This document shows, in pieces, positions 2,509 through 62,437 of a DNA stretch of 64,000 nt; within the stretch, counting starts at the first letter, position 1, and each line of letters begins with the position of its first letter. A program made the position numbers and the translations under genes. The stretch comes from Rhodospirillales bacterium. GTDB taxonomy: Bacteria; Pseudomonadota; Alphaproteobacteria; SMXQ01. The stretch lies in assembly GCA_018666775.1 (NCBI GenBank), contig JABIXC010000011.1, positions 12,881 through 76,880 of the forward strand. Direction: 5' to 3'. Under the pieces are notes generated by a model. That model saw nothing but the letters and a program-made list of their open reading frames with translations. It was not told the DNA's origin and did no database searches.

Positions 2509-2652
2509 GAATATTTTCAGAATACCTAGTATTTTTAGTAGGGTTTCTTCATTTCCGGGCATTTTCATACATTGTTATGAAAACTAATCTATATCCCTCA
2601 TATCCTTTGTGAATTTGTTTTTATGTTTTTTTATCTATGCCCTCGTGTATAA

Positions 2653-3372
2653 TTGGCCACCACTCTTTCCAAGGTGTTTGTTCTGAAAATACTGATCGCA
2701 GATGACCATCCCCTGTACCGCGAAGGATTGTCACGTCTCGTTGCCGGTCTCGATGATGATCCAGTCATTGTCGAAGCGGGAGACTTTACCGAAACACTCA
2801 GCCGTATCCAAAATGATGGTCCCTTTGACCTCATCCTCTGCGATCTCAGGATGCCTGGTGGAGAAGCCATTCCTGCCATTCGCAATGTCATTTCCCAAAG
2901 TGGTGACATCCCAGTTGTTGTCGTTTCCGGTTTTGAAACCCGGCAAAATGTTGAGGGATCATTGGAGGCGGGTGCACGGGGGTTTTTACCAAAATCAACG
3001 CCACCTGCGGTGATGTTAAATGCGCTGCAATTGGTTCTGCTTGGTGAAATTTACGTCCCAAAATCTCTGATCACCAATGAATACGGCTCCGGGGAATCAG
3101 AGAACACCGGCAACCGCCCTGACATGAGCAAAATCCAGGTCCAGATCGACATGCTGACCCAGCGCCAACGCGGCGTGCTTGCCCTGATCGGACAAGGCAT
3201 GTCCAACCGGGATATTGCTGGACGGCTCGATATCTCTGAGGGCACCGTCAAGGTCCACGTTGGGGCTATCTTGAAAACCCTGGATGTAAACAACCGCACC
3301 CAGGCGGCATTGGCGGCAACCGAGCTCGGGATCACGCCCTTGGATGATGACAGACAGGTCGTTGCTAAATAA
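2653..3372 (+). CDS. LuxR/FixJ-family two-component response regulator (REC plus HTH)
   Basis: Receiver motifs ILIADDHPL and DLILCDLRMPG plus a C-terminal LuxR HTH (QRQRGVLALIGQGMSNRDIAGRLDISEGTVKVHV). The true start may be the GTG near 2674. Confidence 0.85.
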   Translation: MATTLSKVFVLKILIADDHPLYREGLSRLVAGLDDDPVIVEAGDFTETLSRIQNDGPFDLILCDLRMPGGEAIPAIRNVISQSGDIPVVVVSGFETRQNVEGSLEAGARGFLPKSTPPAVMLNALQLVLLGEIYVPKSLITNEYGSGESENTGNRPDMSKIQVQIDMLTQRQRGVLALIGQGMSNRDIAGRLDISEGTVKVHVGAILKTLDVNNRTQAALAATELGITPLDDDRQVVAK

Positions 3373-3448
3373 GCAACCCGACGCCAAGCACGCCACCTCC
3401 AGACACTAGAGCCACCAAATACTAGAACCACTGTGGCCTTCCAGCTTT

Positions 3449-3814
3449 TTATTCCAGAATTTCGCGCAGCTCGGAAATGCTGACCGGCTTGGTCAAGGTC
3501 GTGACGCCTTTCAGCTCACCCTTTTCAGCAAGTTCGCGGGCCGAGTCCGTAAAATGAGGGTTGTGGCCCGTCACAAATACAATTTTTGCACGGCATTTTT
3601 CATGGGCAAGCCAATGGGCAAGTTCTACCCCGTCCACTTCCGGCATGACCAAATCCAGCACAACGACCGTCGGATCAAATTGCTCATAAATATCGGCAAA
3701 TTCATCCGCCTTTTCTGCGACCCGCACCTCGTAGCCCAGACCTTCCGCTACAGCACGAACAATCTCAGCAAAGGCTGGTTCGTCATCAATGGCAAGCAAC
3801 CTTTTATCGCCCAT
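3449..3814 (-). CDS. single-domain response regulator (CheY-like receiver)
   Basis: A 121 aa protein with LLAIDDEP, VVVLDLVMPEVDG and TKP motifs and no output domain. Confidence 0.85.
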   Translation of the reverse strand: MGDKRLLAIDDEPAFAEIVRAVAEGLGYEVRVAEKADEFADIYEQFDPTVVVLDLVMPEVDGVELAHWLAHEKCRAKIVFVTGHNPHFTDSARELAEKGELKGVTTLTKPVSISELREILE

Positions 3815-3904
3815 TGCCCCCTCCGAATTTGTTGCAAACCGTTCTCATACTTCTAGTACTACAACCTAACATGGCCACAAATGCAAACAGTCATGATAAT
3901 CGAA

Positions 3905-4031: not shown

Positions 4032-5096
4032 ATGGCCCAAAGCCTTAAAACCATTGATGCTGATGCGCATGTTGTTGAAACCCCGTTGACCTTCGAATTT
4101 ATGGAGGAATCGGAAAAAAAGTTCACGCCACTGGTAACCAACCAGGTTTCCGGCGCCCAACAACTCAGCAATGAAGGCAACGTCCGATCCGAATACTGGA
4201 TCGTTGATAACAACGTCTATGCCAAGGATCGCAATGTCGACAGCCGTTCCGCCACAGAATGGCGTGAAATGACCGACATCAAAGGCCGCGTCAATCACAT
4301 GGATGAATTGAATATTGACGTTCAAATCCTGTATCCAACGCTGTTTTTGCGCCCCTGCACCGACAATTTCGAAATCGAATTTGCGCTGTTCCGTTCCTAT
4401 AACCGTTGGCTCGCCAGCATCTGGAAACAGGCGCCCGAACGTTTGCCTTGGGTTGCCATGGCACCGCTGCATTCGCCAATCGAAAAAATCCGTGAAGAAC
4501 TGGAATGGTGCAAGGCCAATGGCGCCAAGGGCATTTTCATGCGCCCATTGGAATGTGAAAAAGAAGCGTCTGATCCATACTTCTTCCCGTTCTACGAAGT
4601 TGCCCAAGAATTAAATCTTGGCATTTGCTTCCACGCGGGCAATGGCAGCTTCAAGGTCCATGATTTCTTCTTTCCAACCAATTTCCCGATCCATAAACTA
4701 AGCATGGTTGGGGCCTTCCACGGGCTGGTCATGAATGAAATTCCCCAGCGTTTCCCTGAATTACGCTGGGCCTTCATCGAGGCATCGTCGCAATGGCTTG
4801 GCTATGCCGCCCATGATTTGGCCATCCGCCAAAAGAAAAAAGGCAAACGCCCATCCAGCAACATTCTTGCCGATAACAATATCTGGATCGCGGTTCAGGT
4901 GGATGATGATCTTGATTACATCCTTGATCGGTATGCCGATGAAAACTATCTGGTTGTGGGCACCGATTATGGCCACACCGATACGTCAGCCGAAATTGAA
5001 GCCCTGCGCATGATCCGCGACGACGGGAAAATCCCGTCATCGGTGGTCGATAAAATCCTCGGCCCTAATGCCGCCAAACTTTACGATCTGGGTTAA
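4032..5096 (+). CDS. amidohydrolase-2 family protein (PF04909, ACMSD/LigW/LigJ-like metal-dependent hydrolase/decarboxylase), paralog A
   Basis: A 354 aa ORF whose N-terminus reads IDADAHVVETPLT, with MDELNIDVQILYPTLFLR and C-terminal VGTDYGHTDTSAEI. It has a strong Shine-Dalgarno site (GAGGGAG) and is a close paralog of the ORFs at 54937 and 61385. Confidence 0.85.
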   Translation: MAQSLKTIDADAHVVETPLTFEFMEESEKKFTPLVTNQVSGAQQLSNEGNVRSEYWIVDNNVYAKDRNVDSRSATEWREMTDIKGRVNHMDELNIDVQILYPTLFLRPCTDNFEIEFALFRSYNRWLASIWKQAPERLPWVAMAPLHSPIEKIREELEWCKANGAKGIFMRPLECEKEASDPYFFPFYEVAQELNLGICFHAGNGSFKVHDFFFPTNFPIHKLSMVGAFHGLVMNEIPQRFPELRWAFIEASSQWLGYAAHDLAIRQKKKGKRPSSNILADNNIWIAVQVDDDLDYILDRYADENYLVVGTDYGHTDTSAEIEALRMIRDDGKIPSSVVDKILGPNAAKLYDLG

Positions 5097-11905: not shown

Positions 11906-11981
11906 TGGTGCCCAGGGGCGGAATTGAACCACCGACACGAGGATTTTCAGTCCCCTGCTCTACCAACTGAGCTACCTGGGC
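11906..11981 (-). tRNA. tRNA-Phe (anticodon GAA)
   Basis: The manual cloverleaf is GCCCAGG/CCUGGGC acceptor, GCUC/GAGC D-stem, anticodon loop CUGAAAA and GGUUCAAUUCC T-arm, ending in CCA. Confidence 0.95.
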
Positions 11982-19454: not shown

Positions 19455-19529
19455 GCCGCAGTAGCTCAGGGGCAGAGCACTCCCTTGGTAAGGGAGAGGC
19501 CGGCGGTTCGATTCCACCCTGCGGCACCA
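19455..19529 (+). tRNA. tRNA-Thr (anticodon GGT)
   Basis: GCCGCAG/CUGCGGC acceptor stem, anticodon loop UUGGUAA, GGUUCGAUUCC T-arm, A73 and CCA. Confidence 0.95.
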
Positions 19530-34489: not shown

Positions 34490-35560
34490 TTAAATCACCA
34501 GCTTATACAGATCGATGACATTCTGGCTTAAGACCCGTTTCTGGGCTTCGGGTGAAAGTTCGCCGCACTGGCGTCCCACAAAAGCTCTGGAATTGGGCCA
34601 GGTCATATTGGGGTGGGGATAGTCGCTGGACCACATGCAGTTTTTATCACCCCAGAATTTGAGGGTTTGTCCACCCACGTAATCATCCATAAACGTGGCA
34701 TGAACATGATCCATAAAGATTTCGCTGGGCAATCTGGAAATCAAAAAATCTTCATTGGAATGGCCGGGCTTTGTATTGCGAAGATAATAATAATCCCACT
34801 GCTGCAAAATAAAGGGGATCCAGCCAATTTCGCCTTCGACGATTTCCACCGTCAGTTTGGGGTGACGTTCAAACACGCCAGACCAGATCAAATCGAACAC
34901 CGTGGTCACCACCTCTGAGGTTTTGATGTTGACGGAACCGCGCACTTTTTCCATGCCCGCGCGTTTTTCACGGAAATAATTAAACCCGGTCAGAATGTGG
35001 AAATTAAGCGGATAATCCATTTCAGCCGCAGCCGCCCAAAGCTTTTCATAATGGGGCGAGGTCAGCGGCAATTTCGGATCCGGCACCTGCCAGACCAGCG
35101 CACCCTTAAGGCCCATATCATTGCAGCGATGCATTTCCTTGATCGCGCCATCGATGTCGTAAACCGAAATGCAAGGAATGGCGAACAGGCGCTTCGGAGA
35201 CGTATTACAAAAATCAGCGATCCAGTCGTTGTAAACCCGAAAGGCTGCTTCTTGCACATCAGGCTCGGATGCAAACAGGCCGAGGGTAAAGGTTGGATAC
35301 AGCACCTCTGCGGCAACGCCATCAATATCCATGTCGGTGATCCGGACGGCAGGGTCGCTGCCCCCCTTTGGCCGGGTATCGGGCTGAACCTTTGGGCGGG
35401 TCATCCGGTCAAGAATGCTTGGTGGCAATTCATTGAACATATCGGCCGGTTCATCCACATGGCCATCTGCGGAAACAAGAAAGCTCGGGACCTTTTCGCC
35501 CGCCGCTTTCATCTCCGGATCAACATAGCGCGCAGACATTTCATCGATTGTCATGGACAT
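34490..35560 (-). CDS. amidohydrolase-2 family protein (PF04909), divergent paralog B
   Basis: SADGHVDEP N-terminal metal-ligand motif and a C-terminal SSDYPHP motif. Confidence 0.8.
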   Translation of the reverse strand: MSMTIDEMSARYVDPEMKAAGEKVPSFLVSADGHVDEPADMFNELPPSILDRMTRPKVQPDTRPKGGSDPAVRITDMDIDGVAAEVLYPTFTLGLFASEPDVQEAAFRVYNDWIADFCNTSPKRLFAIPCISVYDIDGAIKEMHRCNDMGLKGALVWQVPDPKLPLTSPHYEKLWAAAAEMDYPLNFHILTGFNYFREKRAGMEKVRGSVNIKTSEVVTTVFDLIWSGVFERHPKLTVEIVEGEIGWIPFILQQWDYYYLRNTKPGHSNEDFLISRLPSEIFMDHVHATFMDDYVGGQTLKFWGDKNCMWSSDYPHPNMTWPNSRAFVGRQCGELSPEAQKRVLSQNVIDLYKLVI

Positions 35561-35699: not shown

Positions 35700-35776
<77 letters not shown>

Positions 35777-37061: not shown

Positions 37062-37290
37062 AAAACCTCACATATTAGAGCAAGCGGAAGCCGTCATTCT
37101 TCAAACTTCGAAAACGGCCCCCACCCCAGGGAAAATCGTTCCCGTCTATTCGGATTTTCTATTGTCAGGGGAACCTGTTAACCAAGCCTTAATATCAATC
37201 TCTAGGCCCCTGCCACAAAATGGCCAAAAATGTATGGCCTCTGTTGAATTGCTTGGCCGAAAGTGATACTGGAACACCAGCAAATTCGGG

Positions 37291-37382: not shown

Positions 37383-37760
37383 ATGGCTAAATTTCGTTTT
37401 TTATCGGCATTACTGGCACTTGGCATTGTGTTTACAGGCACCAATGCAATTGCCGCAGGCGATGCCGCCAAAGGCAAGAAGGTCTACAAAAAATGCGCCA
37501 TCTGCCATTCGACCAAAGCTGGCAAGAATAAAATCGGCCCGAGCCTTCATGGCATATTTGGGCGCAAGGCTGCCAAGGGCAAGGGCTTTCGCTATTCAAA
37601 GCCGATGAAAAAATCCGGCCTGACCTGGGATGCAGCCACCCTCGACAAATTCCTTAAAAAGCCCCGCAAAGTGGTCAAGAAAACACGGATGACCTTCCCC
37701 GGCCTGCGTTCTGCATCTCAGCGCGCTGACGTTATTGCGTATATCAAATCGCTTAAGTAA
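37383..37760 (+). CDS. class I cytochrome c (c2/c550-like)
   Basis: Signal peptide, GDAAKGKKVYKKCAICH (CXXCH), GPSLHGIFGRKA and MTFPGL. The start was taken at the ATG 8 nt after AAGGAG. Confidence 0.9.
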   Translation: MAKFRFLSALLALGIVFTGTNAIAAGDAAKGKKVYKKCAICHSTKAGKNKIGPSLHGIFGRKAAKGKGFRYSKPMKKSGLTWDAATLDKFLKKPRKVVKKTRMTFPGLRSASQRADVIAYIKSLK

Positions 37761-37825: not shown

Positions 37826-38593
37826 CTAACCCAGAACGGCCCGTATTCGATCAACTCGGTCCGGCACGGAAATCATCTTATACGATGTAACCTCCAGGGT
37901 GCGATCTTCAAAGACCGTTGGGGCGGAACCGTCTTCTGCCGGGGCTGGGACCCATTTTTCAACCACCCCATCGCGCTCTTTGATCAAGGCGGCAATTTCA
38001 AATGCATACAAACGAACCATGGCGTTTAACCACCGATTGACCGGCCAGGATGGTTGGGCATGGGTGATTTCAAACATCCCGGTTAGTTCGATGACATCCT
38101 CACCTTTATACCAAATCTCGCCCGTGACCCAACGGTTGGTCGTGAACAAGCAAATCGGCTCACCCGCTTCATTCATGGAAATTCCAATGAGATGACTGAG
38201 CGCGTCAGTGGGATCATCCGGCATTTCAAAATCAGTTACCTCGGCCGGGCTCACATGATCAGGCATGCCTGCGGGACGCATAAATGTATGGAAATGCCCG
38301 TGTTCGCCAACCCTTAGATCAGCCGGATGCGCATGATAGAAAAACTGGCTGCCGCTATCCTTGTCATAGACATCGCCATCGGGATAATGATTCCATTCGT
38401 AAAATGTGCCCTTATCGCGCAGCAATTCACCGACGACATTGTCCCCGGTCTTTGCCAACACCGCCTTGATTTCCAGCGCCGTTTCACCCGCAACCCGCAT
38501 TTTTTCAAGGGCGTCACGGTCCAGTTGTTCAAGAGCCACATCGAAGGCGCTTTCTTCAATGTTATCTGCCTTATCTGCTGGTTTTACCACCAT
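37826..38593 (-). CDS. conserved hypothetical protein with a His-rich motif (FYHAHPADLRVGEHGHFHTF), possibly metal-binding
   Basis: A 255 aa ORF with no confident family assignment. Confidence 0.5.
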   Translation of the reverse strand: MVVKPADKADNIEESAFDVALEQLDRDALEKMRVAGETALEIKAVLAKTGDNVVGELLRDKGTFYEWNHYPDGDVYDKDSGSQFFYHAHPADLRVGEHGHFHTFMRPAGMPDHVSPAEVTDFEMPDDPTDALSHLIGISMNEAGEPICLFTTNRWVTGEIWYKGEDVIELTGMFEITHAQPSWPVNRWLNAMVRLYAFEIAALIKERDGVVEKWVPAPAEDGSAPTVFEDRTLEVTSYKMISVPDRVDRIRAVLG

Positions 38594-38775
38594 GATGCCT
38601 TGCCTTCATGCCATTACAAATACAGTCACTCGGGTTTTAAACACGCCCATCCCCTTTGAACAGTGCCGGGAACGCAGATCACGAATTTGTGACCCATTGT
38701 GCATTTTACGACGTTAAATCAAACGATAGGATTATGTCATACACTGGTTGCACATAAAAAAATGAGGATAAATTT

Positions 38776-39765
38776 ATGAAAACCTACCGCGATGGATTGC
38801 TTTCCGGCACCGTGCTTTCTGCCATCATTGGACTTTCCGGTTTTGGGATCAGTATTGGGATGGCCACCAATGCCCAAAGTGCTGGTCTGAACCTGCCCGC
38901 CCAACCCCGTGCAGAATCGACCCTGGTTGCGGCAAACAACCCCTGTAATCCCTGTGCCGCAAAAAATCCATGCGCGGCTAAGAACCCCTGCGCCGCTAAG
39001 AACCCCTGTGCGGCTAAGAACCCCTGTGCGGCTAAAAATCCCTGCGCCGCGAAAAACCCCTGCGCCGCGAAAAACCCGTGCAACCCGTGTGCCGCAAATC
39101 CATGCAACCCCTGTGCAGCAGGCGCATCGGCCAAAGCATCCAACTGTTTTGTCCCACGCCTGACAAAGGCCAAGGCCAACCCCTGTGCAGCCAAAAATCC
39201 CTGTGCCGCTAAAAATCCCTGTAACCCCTGTGGGGCCAAGAACCCTTGCGCCGCATCCGATGACATCGCAGTTTCCAATGCCGAAGCCGTCAAGGCTTAC
39301 GCCTGCATCAGGCCTGTGTTGCAAACAGCCTATGGCAAATCAGGAAATTCAGTCGCGCTGGCCTATACGAAATGGAAAGATTACAGCGCGGTCCCCTATC
39401 CATCATCCACCCATGGCGGCCGCTTTGTTCGCAACTACGCCAACCCCAAGGGGGCCAATTACGGAAAATTTGAAAAGTCCGGGATCATGCCCCAGGGCAC
39501 GGTTCTGGCCAAAGACAGTTTTTCGGTTACCAAAACCGGTGCCGTCGCCCCCGGCCCCTTATTCTTGATGGAAAAAATGGGCCGTGGCTTTAACAAGGCA
39601 TCGGGAAATTGGCGCTACACCATGATCATGCCCAATGGGACAACATTCGGCGTTACCAAAGGCAAAAATTCGGCCGGAATGAAATTCTGCACCGAATGCC
39701 ACGCGGCTGTCGGTGAAAATCAGGATCACATGTTCTTCCTTCCCGAAGAATTCCGATCAAAGTAA
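38776..39765 (+). CDS. cytochrome P460 / cytochrome c'-beta family haem protein with an N-terminal Cys-rich (NPCAAK)n tandem-repeat region
   Basis: Signal peptide, about 17 NPC units, then a C-terminal domain with QGTVLAKDSFSV, GNWRYTMIMP, a CTECH haem site and DHMFFLPEEF. The P460 match is from memory. Confidence 0.7.
   Translation: MKTYRDGLLSGTVLSAIIGLSGFGISIGMATNAQSAGLNLPAQPRAESTLVAANNPCNPCAAKNPCAAKNPCAAKNPCAAKNPCAAKNPCAAKNPCAAKNPCNPCAANPCNPCAAGASAKASNCFVPRLTKAKANPCAAKNPCAAKNPCNPCGAKNPCAASDDIAVSNAEAVKAYACIRPVLQTAYGKSGNSVALAYTKWKDYSAVPYPSSTHGGRFVRNYANPKGANYGKFEKSGIMPQGTVLAKDSFSVTKTGAVAPGPLFLMEKMGRGFNKASGNWRYTMIMPNGTTFGVTKGKNSAGMKFCTECHAAVGENQDHMFFLPEEFRSK
38935..39255 (+). repeat. coding 18-bp tandem repeat array (AAR AAY CCN TGY GCN GCN), about 10 units in two blocks
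   Basis: Read directly. The units differ mainly at synonymous positions. Confidence 0.9.
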
Positions 39766-39797: not shown

Positions 39798-39828
39798 GGG
39801 CGGGAACAATGTTCCCGCCCATTTTGTG
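39798..39828 (+). terminator. intrinsic terminator after the P460-like gene
   Basis: Perfect 10-bp stem GGGCGGGAAC / GTTCCCGCCC with an AAT loop, followed by ATTTTGTG. Confidence 0.55.
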
Positions 39829-54936: not shown

Positions 54937-55989
54937 CTAGATGCCGTAGAGCGCTTTGGCATTGGCGTTGAGAATTTTCTCTGCCACCTCTGCCGACACT
55001 TTGCCGTCATCTTTCAATTTGCGCAGAGCTTCGATCTCAGCCGAGGTATCGGCATGGCCGTAATCCGTGCCGACCACCAATTGGCCATCGCCTGCGTATT
55101 TCAGCACATATTCCAGATCATCTGTCACCTGACAGGCGACAAACATGTTGTTATCGGCCATGGCGGTATCAGACAGTCTTTTGCCTTTGCGCTTGAACCG
55201 GATCGCAAGATCATTCAGCGCATAGGGAATCCACTGTGAACTAACCTCAACAAAGCCCCAGCGCAATTTCGGGAACATCCCAGGCACACCCTTCATCAAC
55301 AAGGAATGGAAGGCGCTGACCACGGGCAATTTTGAACGTCCAAAGCCTGCTTCGGATGCGTAGATATCGCGCACACCGAATGAATTGTTTCCGGAATGGA
55401 AACAAATCGGCATATCCAGTTCTTGGGCCTTTTCGTACATCGGATAAAAATAAGGATCATCCAGACGGCGTTCGCATTCAAGACCACGGATAAAGATTCC
55501 GACGGCGCCATTTTCCTTGCCAAATTCCAGTTCTTCCATGGTTTTATCCATGGACATAAGCGGTGGCATCACGACCCATTTAAGGCGGTCCGGTGCCTTG
55601 CTCCAGATATCTGCCAACCACCGATTATATGATTTGCAAATGGCCGCCTCGGCCAACGCGTTCTGGGTCCAGGCCCGCAAAAAAACCGTGGGATAAAGAA
55701 CCTGAACATCAATGTTGAGCTCGTCCATGTGATCGAGGCGAATTTTAACATCAACCATCTCGCGGGAATCTTTGGTCGTGTTATGGCCGACATTGCCTTC
55801 TTTTGGCTGGATGCGGCCATCAATGGCCCAAAATTCCTTTTGAATGTGTTTGCCTTCGTTATCCAGTTGGCCCGCATCTTCATTCTTGTGAAGGATCACC
55901 TGTGGCTTCAGGTGTTCATATTCTGGGTCCATATAATCAAAGGTTCTTTCACACTCGACAACATGAGCATCGGAATCGATCGCTCCCAT
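54937..55989 (-). CDS. amidohydrolase-2 family protein (PF04909), paralog C
   Basis: IDSDAHVVE, MDELNIDVQVLYPTVFLR and VGTDYGHADTSAEI. About 50% identical to paralogs A and D. Confidence 0.85.
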   Translation of the reverse strand: MGAIDSDAHVVECERTFDYMDPEYEHLKPQVILHKNEDAGQLDNEGKHIQKEFWAIDGRIQPKEGNVGHNTTKDSREMVDVKIRLDHMDELNIDVQVLYPTVFLRAWTQNALAEAAICKSYNRWLADIWSKAPDRLKWVVMPPLMSMDKTMEELEFGKENGAVGIFIRGLECERRLDDPYFYPMYEKAQELDMPICFHSGNNSFGVRDIYASEAGFGRSKLPVVSAFHSLLMKGVPGMFPKLRWGFVEVSSQWIPYALNDLAIRFKRKGKRLSDTAMADNNMFVACQVTDDLEYVLKYAGDGQLVVGTDYGHADTSAEIEALRKLKDDGKVSAEVAEKILNANAKALYGI

Positions 55990-61384: not shown

Positions 61385-62437
61385 ATGGGCTGCGTAGATG
61401 CAGACGCACACGTTATTGAATCGCCATTGACCTGGGATTTCATAGCCGAAGAAGACAAAGCACACACCCCCTTGATGGTCGTCCAGACAGAAGGGCGTGA
61501 GGTCAAGAGCAACGAAGGCGGGACGTCCAAGGAATACTGGCTGATGGACAACCGTTTCCACGCCAAAGACAAGAACGTTGGCTCTGATACATCAATCGAA
61601 TCCCGCGAACTCAGCGATATCGGCGCACGCATTGCGCATATGGATGAATTGGGCATTGATATTCAGGTCTTATATCCCACGCTATTTCTGCGTCCCGCTG
61701 TTCGCACGGCCGCCGCTGAATTGGCCGTGACCAAAGGCTATAACCGCTGGCTTGCCAGCATTTGGAAACATGCCCCAAAGCGTCTACCCTGGGTCGCCAT
61801 GCCACCCTTGATGTCACCCGATAAAATTCGCGACGAATTGACGTGGGCCAAAGACAATGGGGCCTGCGGCGTTTTCATGCGCGGCCTTGAATGCGACCGC
61901 ACCGTGGCGGATCCCTTTTTCTTTCCGCTGTATGAAGCGGCCAGTGAACTGGATTTAGCCATCTGTTTTCATTCGGGAAACAATTCCATTATCCACCATG
62001 ATTTTTTCCTGGAAGACACCACCTTCACCAAATTCAAACTGGCCGTGGTGGGGGCATTTCATTCCCTTTTGGAAAAAGACATCCCCGGAAAATTCCCCGA
62101 CCTGCGTTGGGGCTTTGTTGAAATCAGCGCCCAGTGGGTGCCCTATGTCTGTCATGATCTGCGCTATCGTTTCATGCGCCTTGGCCGTCGTATGCCCGAA
62201 AATCTTTTGGAAGCAAACAAAATTTTTGTCGCCTGCGAAGTGACCGATGACATTCCCTATATCCTGAAATATGCAGGCGATGATCAATTGATGGTCGGCA
62301 CCGATTATGGACATCACGACCCATCGGCAGAAATCAACGCCTTCACCATTATGCGCAACCGCGAAGATGTGGCGCCCGATGTAATGACCAAAATTCTGGA
62401 AACCAATGCACGGACGCTTTACGGGCTTGACGGATAA
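61385..62437 (+). CDS. amidohydrolase-2 family protein (PF04909), paralog D
   Basis: VDADAHVIESPLT, MDELGIDIQVLYPTLFLR and VGTDYGHHDPSAEI. Confidence 0.85.
   Translation: MGCVDADAHVIESPLTWDFIAEEDKAHTPLMVVQTEGREVKSNEGGTSKEYWLMDNRFHAKDKNVGSDTSIESRELSDIGARIAHMDELGIDIQVLYPTLFLRPAVRTAAAELAVTKGYNRWLASIWKHAPKRLPWVAMPPLMSPDKIRDELTWAKDNGACGVFMRGLECDRTVADPFFFPLYEAASELDLAICFHSGNNSIIHHDFFLEDTTFTKFKLAVVGAFHSLLEKDIPGKFPDLRWGFVEISAQWVPYVCHDLRYRFMRLGRRMPENLLEANKIFVACEVTDDIPYILKYAGDDQLMVGTDYGHHDPSAEINAFTIMRNREDVAPDVMTKILETNARTLYGLDG

Follow-up and report, generated by a model that had tools for sequence, protein, structure and literature searches.

We analysed 64,000 nucleotides of DNA (hereafter the window) from a Rhodospirillales bacterium (NCBI GenBank assembly GCA_018666775.1, contig JABIXC010000011.1, positions 12,881 to 76,880 of the forward strand), focusing on a gene at 38776–39765 (+) whose 329-residue product joins a haem domain of the cytochrome P460/cytochrome c'-beta type to a cysteine-rich N-terminal arm of Asn-Pro-Cys (NPC) repeats. 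We refer to it as the P460-arm gene, and all positions are those of the window. According to the open reading frame (ORF) list and the sequence, the gene starts with ATG; a Shine–Dalgarno-like GAGGA lies 8 nt 5' of this codon (38764–38768, +), and an intrinsic-terminator-like hairpin with a 10-bp stem (8 G–C pairs), followed by a T tract, lies 33 nt past the stop codon (39798–39820, +). The protein is composed of an N-terminal export signal or anchor (about residues 1–35; 38776–38880), a first repeat block of 12 NPC units including 7 consecutive NPCAAK hexapeptides (residues 55–113; 38938–39114), an inter-repeat linker with a C-F-V-P-R-L motif beginning at Cys124 (residues 114–134; 39115–39177; Cys124 codon 39145–39147), a second block of five NPC units (residues 135–158; 39178–39249), and the haem domain (residues 159–329; 39250–39762), all encoded on the + strand.

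The assignment of the first segment was based on Kyte–Doolittle analysis and on the N-termini of family members. The N-terminus carries basic residues (K2/R5), a hydrophobic stretch whose Kyte–Doolittle peak reaches 1.76 at residue 12 (19-residue window), and then GMA/TNAQS. By eye, this segment is alike across the family in the listed sequences (M-x-P-F-K-x-x-L-L-S-T-V-I-P-V...). We infer from these features that the P460-arm protein is exported by the Sec route to the periplasm.

The original prediction had described about 17 NPC units, mostly NPCAAK, and the count gave exactly 17 NPC tripeptides between residues 55 and 158, nine of which belong to exact NPCAAK hexapeptides. Together with Cys124 in the linker, Cys177 in the haem domain, and Cys305 and Cys308 of a CTECH motif, these account for all 21 cysteines of the protein. 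The 105-residue arm contains 18 Cys and 13 Lys, lacks Asp and Glu, and has a Phe as its only aromatic residue. A similar composition was found over 119 homologs, whose arms are 19% Cys with a mean of 15.5 basic versus 0.6 acidic residues and about one aromatic, His, or Met residue. This Lys-rich, Cys-rich composition resembles that of metallothioneins, in which Lys offsets anionic metal–thiolate clusters.

Tandem Repeats Finder detected an 18-nt period in the gene with 7.3 copies (score 152), plus a second block. The DNA units encoding the nine identical NPCAAK peptides differ from one another at a mean of 3.17 of 18 nucleotides; these differences are all synonymous by construction, as the units were chosen for encoding identical peptides. 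The retention of identical peptides by diverged DNA units indicates selection on the peptide rather than chance or recent slippage. Two antisense ORFs, at 38737–39324 (−; 195 aa) and 38784–39293 (−; 169 aa), overlap the repeat region. Equivalent antisense ORFs occur in essentially all related loci, and they are by-products of repeated GC-rich codons, not genes.

The C-terminal domain, predicted to be of the P460/c'-beta type, was recognized as such by both sequence and fold. The Pfam model PF16694 (Cytochrome_P460) matched residues 199–320 (39370–39735; model positions 6–124/125) with 33.7 bits against a curated cutoff of 27. The AlphaFold (AF2) model of residues 158–329 had a predicted local distance difference test score (pLDDT) of 92.1 and a predicted TM-score (pTM) of 0.88. 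In a Foldseek comparison of this model with the PDB, ranks 1–9 were all P460 or c'-beta structures (E 4.5e-7 to 3.6e-4; rank 10, E 0.15), including 7ead (4.5e-7), 9hrk, 6hiu, 7s5o, 2je2, 8gar, 6e0z, and 6e17, with target-normalised TM-scores of 0.48–0.69 for the top matches and 17–23% identity to the solved structures. A sequence search of PDB chains with the whole protein returned no P460/c'-beta match, nor did a 27-sequence family profile retrieve any solved P460/c'-beta chain from the PDB even at E ≤ 10, and NCBIfam gave no match for the P460-arm protein. Since fold comparison and hhalign found a match where the PDB sequence searches found none, the relationship to characterised P460s is remote.

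The key residues of the haem domain were then compared with those of Nitrosomonas europaea P460 (NeP460), whose sequence is identical to PDB 2je2. A single haem c attachment motif of the CXXCH type, CTECH (residues 305–309 of 329; 39688–39702, +), lies close to the C-terminus, and its Cys305, Cys308, and His309 are invariant in 120 of 120 homologs. The GNW, GTVxxK, and DHMF (D-x-M-F) motifs align with their NeP460 counterparts in a profile alignment, in which Lys246 (QGTVLAK246D; codon 39511–39513, +) falls on the haem cross-linking Lys70 (DGTVTVK70E) with an hhalign probability of 74% and an E value of 2.7e-5, an equivalence drawn from one profile alignment. The lysine that had been picked out in a GTVxxK context as the cross-linking residue thus occupies the corresponding position, and it is invariant across the 120 homologs, as are His213, Asn220, Tyr229, Lys267, Asp317, and Cys177. 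Arg216 (119/120), Asp247 (112/120), and Glu266 (105/120) are nearly so.

A Lys–haem γ-meso cross-link, a distal carboxylate, and a capping residue are the features associated with NH2OH oxidation in this superfamily (PMC11928373). The cross-linking Lys is Lys70 in NeP460, Lys78 in McP460, and Lys106 in NsP460, and NeCP-beta has Met79 at this position (PMC11928373, Table 2); the distal carboxylate is Glu96 in NeP460 and Asp102 in McP460, and the capping residue is Phe41, Arg50, or Phe76 (PMC11928373). In the window protein, the profile alignment is gapped over NeP460 residues 91–99, the Glu96 region, where Glu266 (in LFLMEKM) and Asp247 are candidate carboxylates. The loop with the NeP460 capping residue also lies in an alignment gap, and His213 and Arg216 in that region are candidate equivalents only. 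These comparisons support the haem domain as a Lys-type member of the P460/c'-beta superfamily with polar conserved residues. As the conserved set comprises the invariant Lys and several polar residues (His213, Arg216, Asn220, Glu266, and Lys267), an enzyme that oxidises small molecules is more likely here than a hydrophobic gas binder.

The linker between the two repeat blocks is conserved as well. The motif C-x-[VI]-P-R-L was present in 112 of 121 family members. Among representatives with this motif, 24 of 25 have the Cys of helix 1 of the haem domain (Cys177 in the window protein; codon 39304–39306, +), and 60 of 61 representatives lacking the helix-1 Cys also lack the motif. This covariation points to a Cys124–Cys177 disulfide, by which the C124-x-V-P-R-L linker probably pins the arm to the haem domain. 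With this bond formed, 17 thiols would remain in the arm, which is an odd count.

The arm is neither an isolated oddity of this protein nor of one assembly. The identical 329-residue protein was found on at least 22 contigs (42 index blocks), with the same neighbours on all of them; its carriers include the NCBI metagenome-assembled genome (MAG) GCA_018675775.1, Logan SRR3719629, and JGI metagenome 3300037842. The complete arm is therefore retained in independent assemblies, as the original prediction would have it. The arm is also not peculiar to this protein: a search with the whole protein returned 1,492 database relatives at E ≤ 1e-3, all unnamed or labelled 'hypothetical protein'. Among 22 relatives inspected, all but one N-terminally cut fragment and one short form shared a common layout, consisting of a hydrophobic N-terminal segment, (C)NPCAAK repeats, a linker, further repeats, and the haem domain. 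Species-representative genomes contain at least 532 loci for relatives, which mostly have this layout; the best is only 56% identical. The genome loci listed are almost all from marine or saline Alphaproteobacteria (Rhodospirillales, Sneathiellales, Kiloniellales, Terasakiella, Minwuia, and Denitrobaculum).

The number of cysteines per homolog ranges from about 10 to 59. Most homologs contain CNPCAAKNP units with two Cys each; the window protein and a few others (L077 from Terasakiella, L046, and L066) have single-Cys NPCAAK units. One P460-arm homolog, at 2577–3875 (−) of locus L126, carries CGAC-type repeats (GACGACGACKAA...) in place of NPC. The single-Cys units and the CGAC variant together indicate that the constant element is NPC, or Cys with small residues and Lys, and not CXXC.

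A search with the haem domain alone against a 50%-identity representative library gave 634 clusters. Among the 122 representatives with adequate coverage, 21 are armed and 101 have fewer than five xPC units, the latter being mostly arm-less proteins of 200–245 aa, along with some fragments and one 32-Cys protein with a different Cys repeat. The arm-less sequences mostly have 2 Cys (CXXCH only) or 4 Cys. The cross-link position is occupied by Lys in 20 of the 21 armed representatives, and by Lys (83), Met (7), or Thr (5) in the arm-less ones. Judged from these sequences, Lys versus Met or Thr at this position is a split between P460-like and c'-beta-like members inside one subfamily.

Nor is the arm specific to P460 proteins. 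A search with the arm alone, as the original prediction had proposed, gave 588 matches; the 120 matches listed are all of 214 aa or less, so that larger non-P460 carriers were possibly missed. NPCA[AVM]K repeats were found at the N- and/or C-terminus of SoxA/TsdA-type mono-haem cytochromes c (PF21342, E 4.9e-10 to 6.2e-14), flanking small beta-barrel domains on either side (weak DUF5666, CusF, or PDZ matches), and on YHS, TPR, and LysM proteins. In addition, stand-alone secreted NPC peptides of 85–110 aa occur in Motiliproteus, Nitrosomonas, and others. The source names of the arm-only matches include Burkholderiaceae, Thermodesulfobacteriota, Deltaproteobacteria, Nitrospinae, Nitrosomonas, Oceanisphaera, Amphritea, and a cyanobacterium.

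The placement of the repeat is equally variable. One protein (P0504, 710 aa) has NPC repeats inside the P460 domain itself, in a surface hairpin after the Lys strand, and two others (P0397, 481 aa, and P0130) have a LysM domain inside the arm, with a further embedded repeat block in P0397. Moreover, the armed cytochrome c domains have a conserved Cys that is matched, in a weak alignment (E 0.018), to SoxA Cys114 (1h31), a haem axial ligand. The variety of hosts and placements suggests that the repeat decorates periplasmic proteins irrespective of position, above all those with unusual haem domains that react with substrates. By the domains that it accompanies, the NPC repeat is not specific to P460 proteins but a portable module.

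Around the P460-arm gene, the gene order in the window is class I cytochrome c (37383–37760, +; PF00034), DUF6969 (37826–38593, −; PF22308, E 2.3e-77), the P460-arm gene itself (+), a gene for a universal stress protein, and genes for TRAP/TAXI transporters. The DUF6969 and P460-arm genes are divergent, with 182 bp between them. The cytochrome c is 125 aa long from its MAKFRF start, the longer ORF beginning at 37263, and it is called as 125 aa on other contigs too. The remainder of the window contains housekeeping and heterotroph genes, such as hisD, an EPSP-synthase-family gene, dxs, glyS, RNase E/G, transporters, and amidohydrolases. Genes of the amo, hao, nir, nor, and sox groups were not found in the 64 kb, and may lie elsewhere in the genome; the organism, as had been supposed, does not look like a nitrifier as far as this stretch goes. 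The amidohydrolases include four paralogous Amidohydro_2 (PF04909) genes, at 4032–5096, 34490–35560, 54937–55989, and 61385–62437, and an Rfam scan of the window detected three tRNAs only, at 11909–11981 (−), 19455–19526 (+), and 35703–35776 (−).

The neighbourhood was compared across 80 P460-arm genome loci using tblastn and de novo clustering of neighbours, 40 of which have at least 3 kb on both sides. Among these 40 full-flank loci, DUF6969 was present in 25, a secreted protein with an FGE-sulfatase domain (formylglycine-generating enzyme-like, hereafter FGE-like) in 20, and a cytochrome c in 12; the FGE-like gene was always accompanied by DUF6969 (20/20). Within the fetched flanks (up to 6 kb), 23 of the 80 loci have a cytochrome c and 12 a YeeE/Sulf_transp gene. 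No sulfatase gene was found among the recurring neighbours of P460-arm loci.

The reverse comparison started from 43 metagenomic DUF6969 loci of at least 6 kb. In 31 of them, DUF6969 is directly preceded by the FGE-like gene in the same orientation; examples of FGE-like genes beside DUF6969 are L098 (4090–5702), L105, L106, and L121, and the genome loci L013 and L021. A cytochrome c is present in 14 of the 43 loci, and Cys-rich repeat ORFs (mostly NPC, either P460-arm genes or stand-alone peptides) in 12. DUF2336 occurs in 33, indicating that many are syntenic with the window, and part of the association is therefore attributable to shared ancestry. As only 11–12 of the 43 loci have an NPC ORF, most of the loci being syntenic with the window, the linkage is real but partial.

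The decisive cases are three non-syntenic contexts in which an NPC-armed SoxA/TsdA-type cytochrome c gene is immediately followed by DUF6969. In L085/L086 the two genes are separated by a 43-bp gap, and in the cultured gammaproteobacterium Oceanisphaera ostreae by a 9-bp gap. In L089 (3558–8041), genes for a stand-alone NPC peptide (103 aa), an NPC–cytochrome c–NPC protein (272 aa), and DUF6969 are consecutive, and the 5' part of this seven-gene run encodes DUF302, YeeE/Sulf_transp, and a small secreted protein that is cupredoxin-like by eye. This run could be a compact version of the whole system.

Other NPC genes have different surroundings. One armed cytochrome, without DUF6969 nearby, adjoins MerT, HMA, and CopZ genes. 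In a Nitrosomonas MAG (L172, 6001–9044), an 86-aa NPC peptide is encoded near a thioredoxin, a DsbD/CcdA-type protein, and a pyridine-nucleotide disulfide oxidoreductase; these thiol-reducing genes suggest that the repeat thiols are kept reduced. In L084, an NPC protein gene is close to genes for a peroxiredoxin/redoxin, a SoxA-TsdA cytochrome, an NrfA-like cytochrome, YeeE, and a cysteine desulfurase. Furthermore, in other phyla, armed beta-barrel or cytochrome c genes in L088, L090, and L171 (P0122, P0239, and P0123) stand beside multihaem c552/c554-like cytochromes and DUF3179, one of them with an ECF sigma/anti-sigma pair, which constitutes a second recurring context, without DUF6969.

DUF6969 has 5,362 homologs, all unnamed, and no signal peptide. 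Its invariant His/Asp/Glu cluster (H68, D73, H86, H88, E96, H97, H99, H101, and H133) suggests a metal centre. AF2 models of its homologs revealed no solved structural relative, and it resembles no known modifying enzyme. In GCA_018675775.1 (L082, 2051–2725), DUF6969 was called as 224 aa versus 255 aa, probably a difference in the start-codon call. The FGE-like neighbour has a full-length FGE-sulfatase domain (Pfam E 1e-42) and a signal peptide, and its only two Cys form an invariant GCG[VI]CR pair (29 of 29 sequences), located in the region where true FGEs bind Cu(I). We considered whether the FGE-like neighbour is tied to the C-x-P content of the arms, and dropped this idea because no correlation was seen and single-Cys stand-alone NPC peptides also adjoin FGE-like genes.

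In the literature, with most subscription journals outside the coverage, we found no mention of an NPCAAK, CNPCAAK, or NPC repeat, no paper on a cytochrome P460 with a cysteine-rich arm or on DUF6969, and nothing specific on FGE or NirV proteins with Cys-rich periplasmic repeats. The 2025 review of the superfamily describes no N-terminal extension, repeat, or Cys arm (PMC11928373), which agrees with the original prediction that no described P460 has such an arm. The NPC repeat arm appears to be an undescribed protein module present on two kinds of substrate-reactive haem domain in several phyla.

We tentatively favour a model in which the arm is a metallothionein-like, Lys-balanced polythiolate that captures soft metals next to the haem domain. 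The gene product, a mono-haem c member of the P460/c'-beta superfamily, would be exported by the Sec route to the periplasm, and its haem domain would probably pass electrons to the class I cytochrome c whose gene lies two positions upstream. The arm would serve as a flexible lysine-rich thiolate module holding soft metal ions of the Cu(I) type beside this domain, and the armed haem proteins would be serviced by the cytoplasmic, His-rich DUF6969 protein, most relatives also having the secreted FGE-like protein. This model is favoured because of the arm composition, its position-independent, loop-like deployment, weak copper and metal associations, and the precedent of the bufferins and oxazolins. 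The internal and terminal placements of the repeat are typical of metal-capturing low-complexity loops and not of a spacer. The metal-related associations consist of the CusF-like and YHS hosts, the MerT/HMA/CopZ context, and the cuproenzyme family to which the FGE-like partner belongs. The FGE family comprises cuproenzymes, the FGE-like neighbour keeps its invariant Cys pair, and a Buf1, Cytochrom_C, and FGE-sulfatase chimera exists among copper-binding bufferins (PMC12452194). The thiol-reducing genes near NPC proteins in L172 and L084 would agree with arm thiols that stay functional.

Several observations weigh against the metal-capturing arm or against parts of the model around it. NPCAAK units space their cysteines as C-x5-C with an intervening Pro, in contrast to the CxC/CxxC clusters found in classical metallothioneins, the oxidising periplasm would tend to turn free thiols into disulfides, and most of the sampled contexts are not metal-resistance loci. 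The hints of sulfur handling, namely the SoxA/TsdA-type host domain and the YeeE/Sulf_transp genes of the P460-arm loci, L084, and L089, point elsewhere. The catalytic competence of the haem domain, and with it the hydroxylamine/NO reactivity put forward in the original prediction, is an assumption, given the unmapped distal carboxylate and capping residues and the failure of the family profile to retrieve a solved P460/c'-beta. As to the partners, 7 of 10 sampled non-P460 NPC proteins have no DUF6969 in the fetched flanks (usually 6 kb), much of the co-occurrence of P460-arm genes and DUF6969 falls within one syntenic alphaproteobacterial clade, and the FGE-like gene is absent from the whole 64-kb window.

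The occurrence of the NPC module on periplasmic proteins, other cytochromes included, in many bacteria and often next to the DUF6969 and FGE-like genes probably marks an unrecognised periplasmic thiol system. A more far-reaching proposal, which we regard as possible but doubtful, is that the NPC repeats constitute a widespread periplasmic polythiol-arm system, matured or serviced by a dedicated pair made up of DUF6969, as a cytoplasmic His-rich metalloprotein, and the secreted FGE-like protein, as a cuproenzyme homolog. In its strongest form, the arm Cys would be converted to formylglycine, heterocycles, or persulfides, or loaded, and the arm would deliver substrates or metals to the haem or trap them for it. 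If this is true, the system would represent a new class of protein-borne cofactor arm and would explain what Lys-type P460 enzymes do in marine heterotrophs that do not nitrify.

Another explanation, which we consider unlikely, is that the arm carries sulfur or another substrate, the NPC Cys acting as a SoxY-like swinging arm that is loaded by the attached haem domain. Thiosulfate, sulfide, polysulfide, or possibly NH2OH/HNO species would be held as persulfides, thiosulfonates, or S–N adducts, and the electrons would leave via the neighbouring cytochrome c. The many non-P460 repeat carriers with a SoxA/TsdA-type cytochrome c domain and the alignment of their conserved Cys with SoxA Cys114 are in line with such a carrier, as are the YeeE/Sulf_transp genes and the DUF302 and cysteine desulfurase genes near NPC genes (L089 and L084). 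In addition, a Lys beside each Cys would be expected to lower the thiol pKa, and the repeats by the haem pocket hairpin of P0504 would put thiols near the active site. However, the repeat is also found on beta-barrel, YHS, TPR, and LysM hosts and as stand-alone peptides, which implies that a haem catalyst in cis is not required. Moreover, there are no sox, dsr, or sqr genes within the 64-kb window, the SoxA alignment is weak, and 17 or more carrier sites per protein are without precedent.

It is similarly improbable, in our estimate, that the arm is primarily a modification substrate whose NPC Cys are converted, for example to formylglycine or a heterocycle, by DUF6969 before export and/or by the FGE-like enzyme. 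The modified arm would then be the functional entity, either as a metal chelator or as an aldehyde-based trap or cross-linker, and the proposal is compatible with later metal binding. The tight co-directional pairing of the FGE-like gene and DUF6969 is consistent with this, and the pair stands beside Cys-rich repeat ORFs at a frequency (12/43) far above that expected for a gene occurring about once per genome. The signal peptide of the FGE-like protein, its invariant Cys pair at the Cu(I)-binding region of FGEs, and the putative metal centre of DUF6969 also fit enzymes of this kind. Bufferin and oxazolin precursors, which combine a Sec signal with Cys repeats (EGKCG, up to 58 Cys), are altered before export, and the counterpart of the signal-like segment that is so alike across the P460-arm family is reported to form part of their recognition sequence (PMC12452194). 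The FGE recognition motif is CxPxR, and CNPC matches its C-x-P core, yet the arms lack the Arg: the window protein has four arm CNPC sites, none with Arg at +4, and most of its units are NPCAAK, with no C-x-P site. With neither a CxPxR motif nor an FGE gene in the window, the protein is not a strict FGE substrate, and its arm is nevertheless under selection. Across the loci, the presence of FGE was not correlated with CNPC content (0.86 vs. 0.83), and the four single-Cys-type arms have no FGE. Furthermore, neither MNIO nor DUF2063 was noted at any of the examined loci, and DUF6969 is unlike the known modifying enzymes and is missing near most of the sampled non-P460 NPC proteins.

A purely disulfide-based role appears still less probable. 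Here the arm would be a disulfide-laddered rigid tether or spacer that keeps the haem domain at a distance from a membrane anchor, or a sacrificial periplasmic redox buffer. The N-terminal hydrophobic segment could indeed be an uncleaved anchor, in most homologs the CNPC units are CXXC motifs, some NPC genes have thioredoxin, DsbD-type, or redoxin genes nearby, and the periplasm favours disulfides. Nevertheless, the invariant core is NPC and not CXXC, as seen in the single-Cys units of the window protein, L077, and L046; the 17 NPC Cys are odd in number, with no obvious Cys parity across homologs by eye; the C-terminal, both-end, in-domain, and stand-alone repeats fit no tether; and the arm length varies widely, with about 10 to 59 Cys. 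Finally, an assembly or gene-calling error, or a functionless, drifting low-complexity expansion, might be suspected from the repetitive sequence and the long overlapping antisense ORFs, but it is effectively refuted and left with negligible probability by the identical protein on at least 22 contigs from independent projects, the more than 1,400 homologs, the identical repeat peptides kept despite synonymous DNA divergence, the conserved linker and domain, and the gene's own ribosome-binding site and terminator.

Studies of P460 enzymes have been nearly confined to nitrifiers and methanotrophs, where these enzymes count as sources of NO and N2O (PMC11928373). A clade of more than 1,400 sequences from marine heterotrophic Alphaproteobacteria with an invariant cross-link Lys and conserved polar residues suggests that Lys-type P460 chemistry extends far beyond the members characterised so far. 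The arm is genetically linked to a domain without known function or solved structural relative and to an FGE-like protein, and its follow-up could reveal a new metal-handling, sulfur-handling, or protein-modification system. The role of the arm is directly testable in cultured carriers, which include Terasakiella sp. A23, Oceanisphaera ostreae, Motiliproteus sp. MSK22-1, and Pelagibius sp. CAU 1746.

Compared with known systems, the window protein shares with the P460s (NeP460, 2je2/2je3; McP460, 6hiu; NsP460, 6amg) and the c'-beta cytochromes (McCP-beta, 6hih; TtCP-beta, 7ead; NeCP-beta, 7s5o) the beta-sheet-rich fold, a single CXXCH near the C-terminus, the GNW and D-x-M-F motifs, a Lys at the cross-link position, and, by its predicted export, the periplasmic location. 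It differs from them by an extra N-terminal helical segment, a linker with a putative disulfide, and the 105-residue NPC arm, which no described member has, and its host, a marine alphaproteobacterium of heterotroph-like character, shows no genes for the oxidation of ammonia or methane in the window. The protein is thus a member of a known superfamily, and the N-terminal helix, the linker, and the NPC arm are what is new.

For the arm, the bufferins and oxazolins (Buf_EGKCG), Sec-exported Cys-repeat ribosomally synthesised and post-translationally modified peptides that sequester periplasmic copper (PMC12452194), offer a resemblance in kind only. Both have a Sec-type signal-like N-terminus, short repeats of Cys and Lys, tens of Cys, a periplasmic destination, adjacent conserved cytoplasmic partner genes, and an occasional link to cytochrome c and FGE-sulfatase domains (PMC12452194). 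In contrast to the bufferins, the motif is NPCAAK rather than EGKCG, and the repeat forms an arm on folded haem and other domains instead of existing solely as a peptide. Its partner is DUF6969, alone or together with the FGE-like protein, and neither MNIO (DUF692), DUF2063, nor DoxX was noted in the loci examined, which indicates that this is not a bufferin-type system.

Metal capture by flexible segments in the periplasm is exemplified by the His-rich loop of ZnuA, the Met-rich inserts of CueO/PcoC/CusF-type proteins, and the copper storage protein Csp1. With metallothioneins and such loops, the arm shares a high content of Cys and Lys with nearly no aromatics and a low-complexity, position-independent character; it differs in its regular C-x5-C or CNPC spacing with Asn-Pro and in its attachment to haem domains, and its metal binding is putative. 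The resemblance to SoxYZ, SoxAX, and TsdA lies in other repeat carriers, which have a SoxA/TsdA-type haem domain with a conserved Cys at the ligand position, in the idea that a flexible Cys arm brings substrate to a catalytic haem, and in the YeeE-type genes nearby. SoxY, by comparison, is a separate protein with one carrier Cys in a GGCGG tail, and the window has no sox genes and a haem domain of the P460 type, not the SoxA type. With the FGE/SUMF1 family, which includes NirV and PvdO, the system is connected by the frequent neighbour with a full-length FGE-sulfatase domain and by the C-x-P core held in CNPC; unlike FGE, this neighbour has its Cys pair as CxxC instead of C-x4-C, and the arms that it accompanies do not have the Arg of CxPxR.

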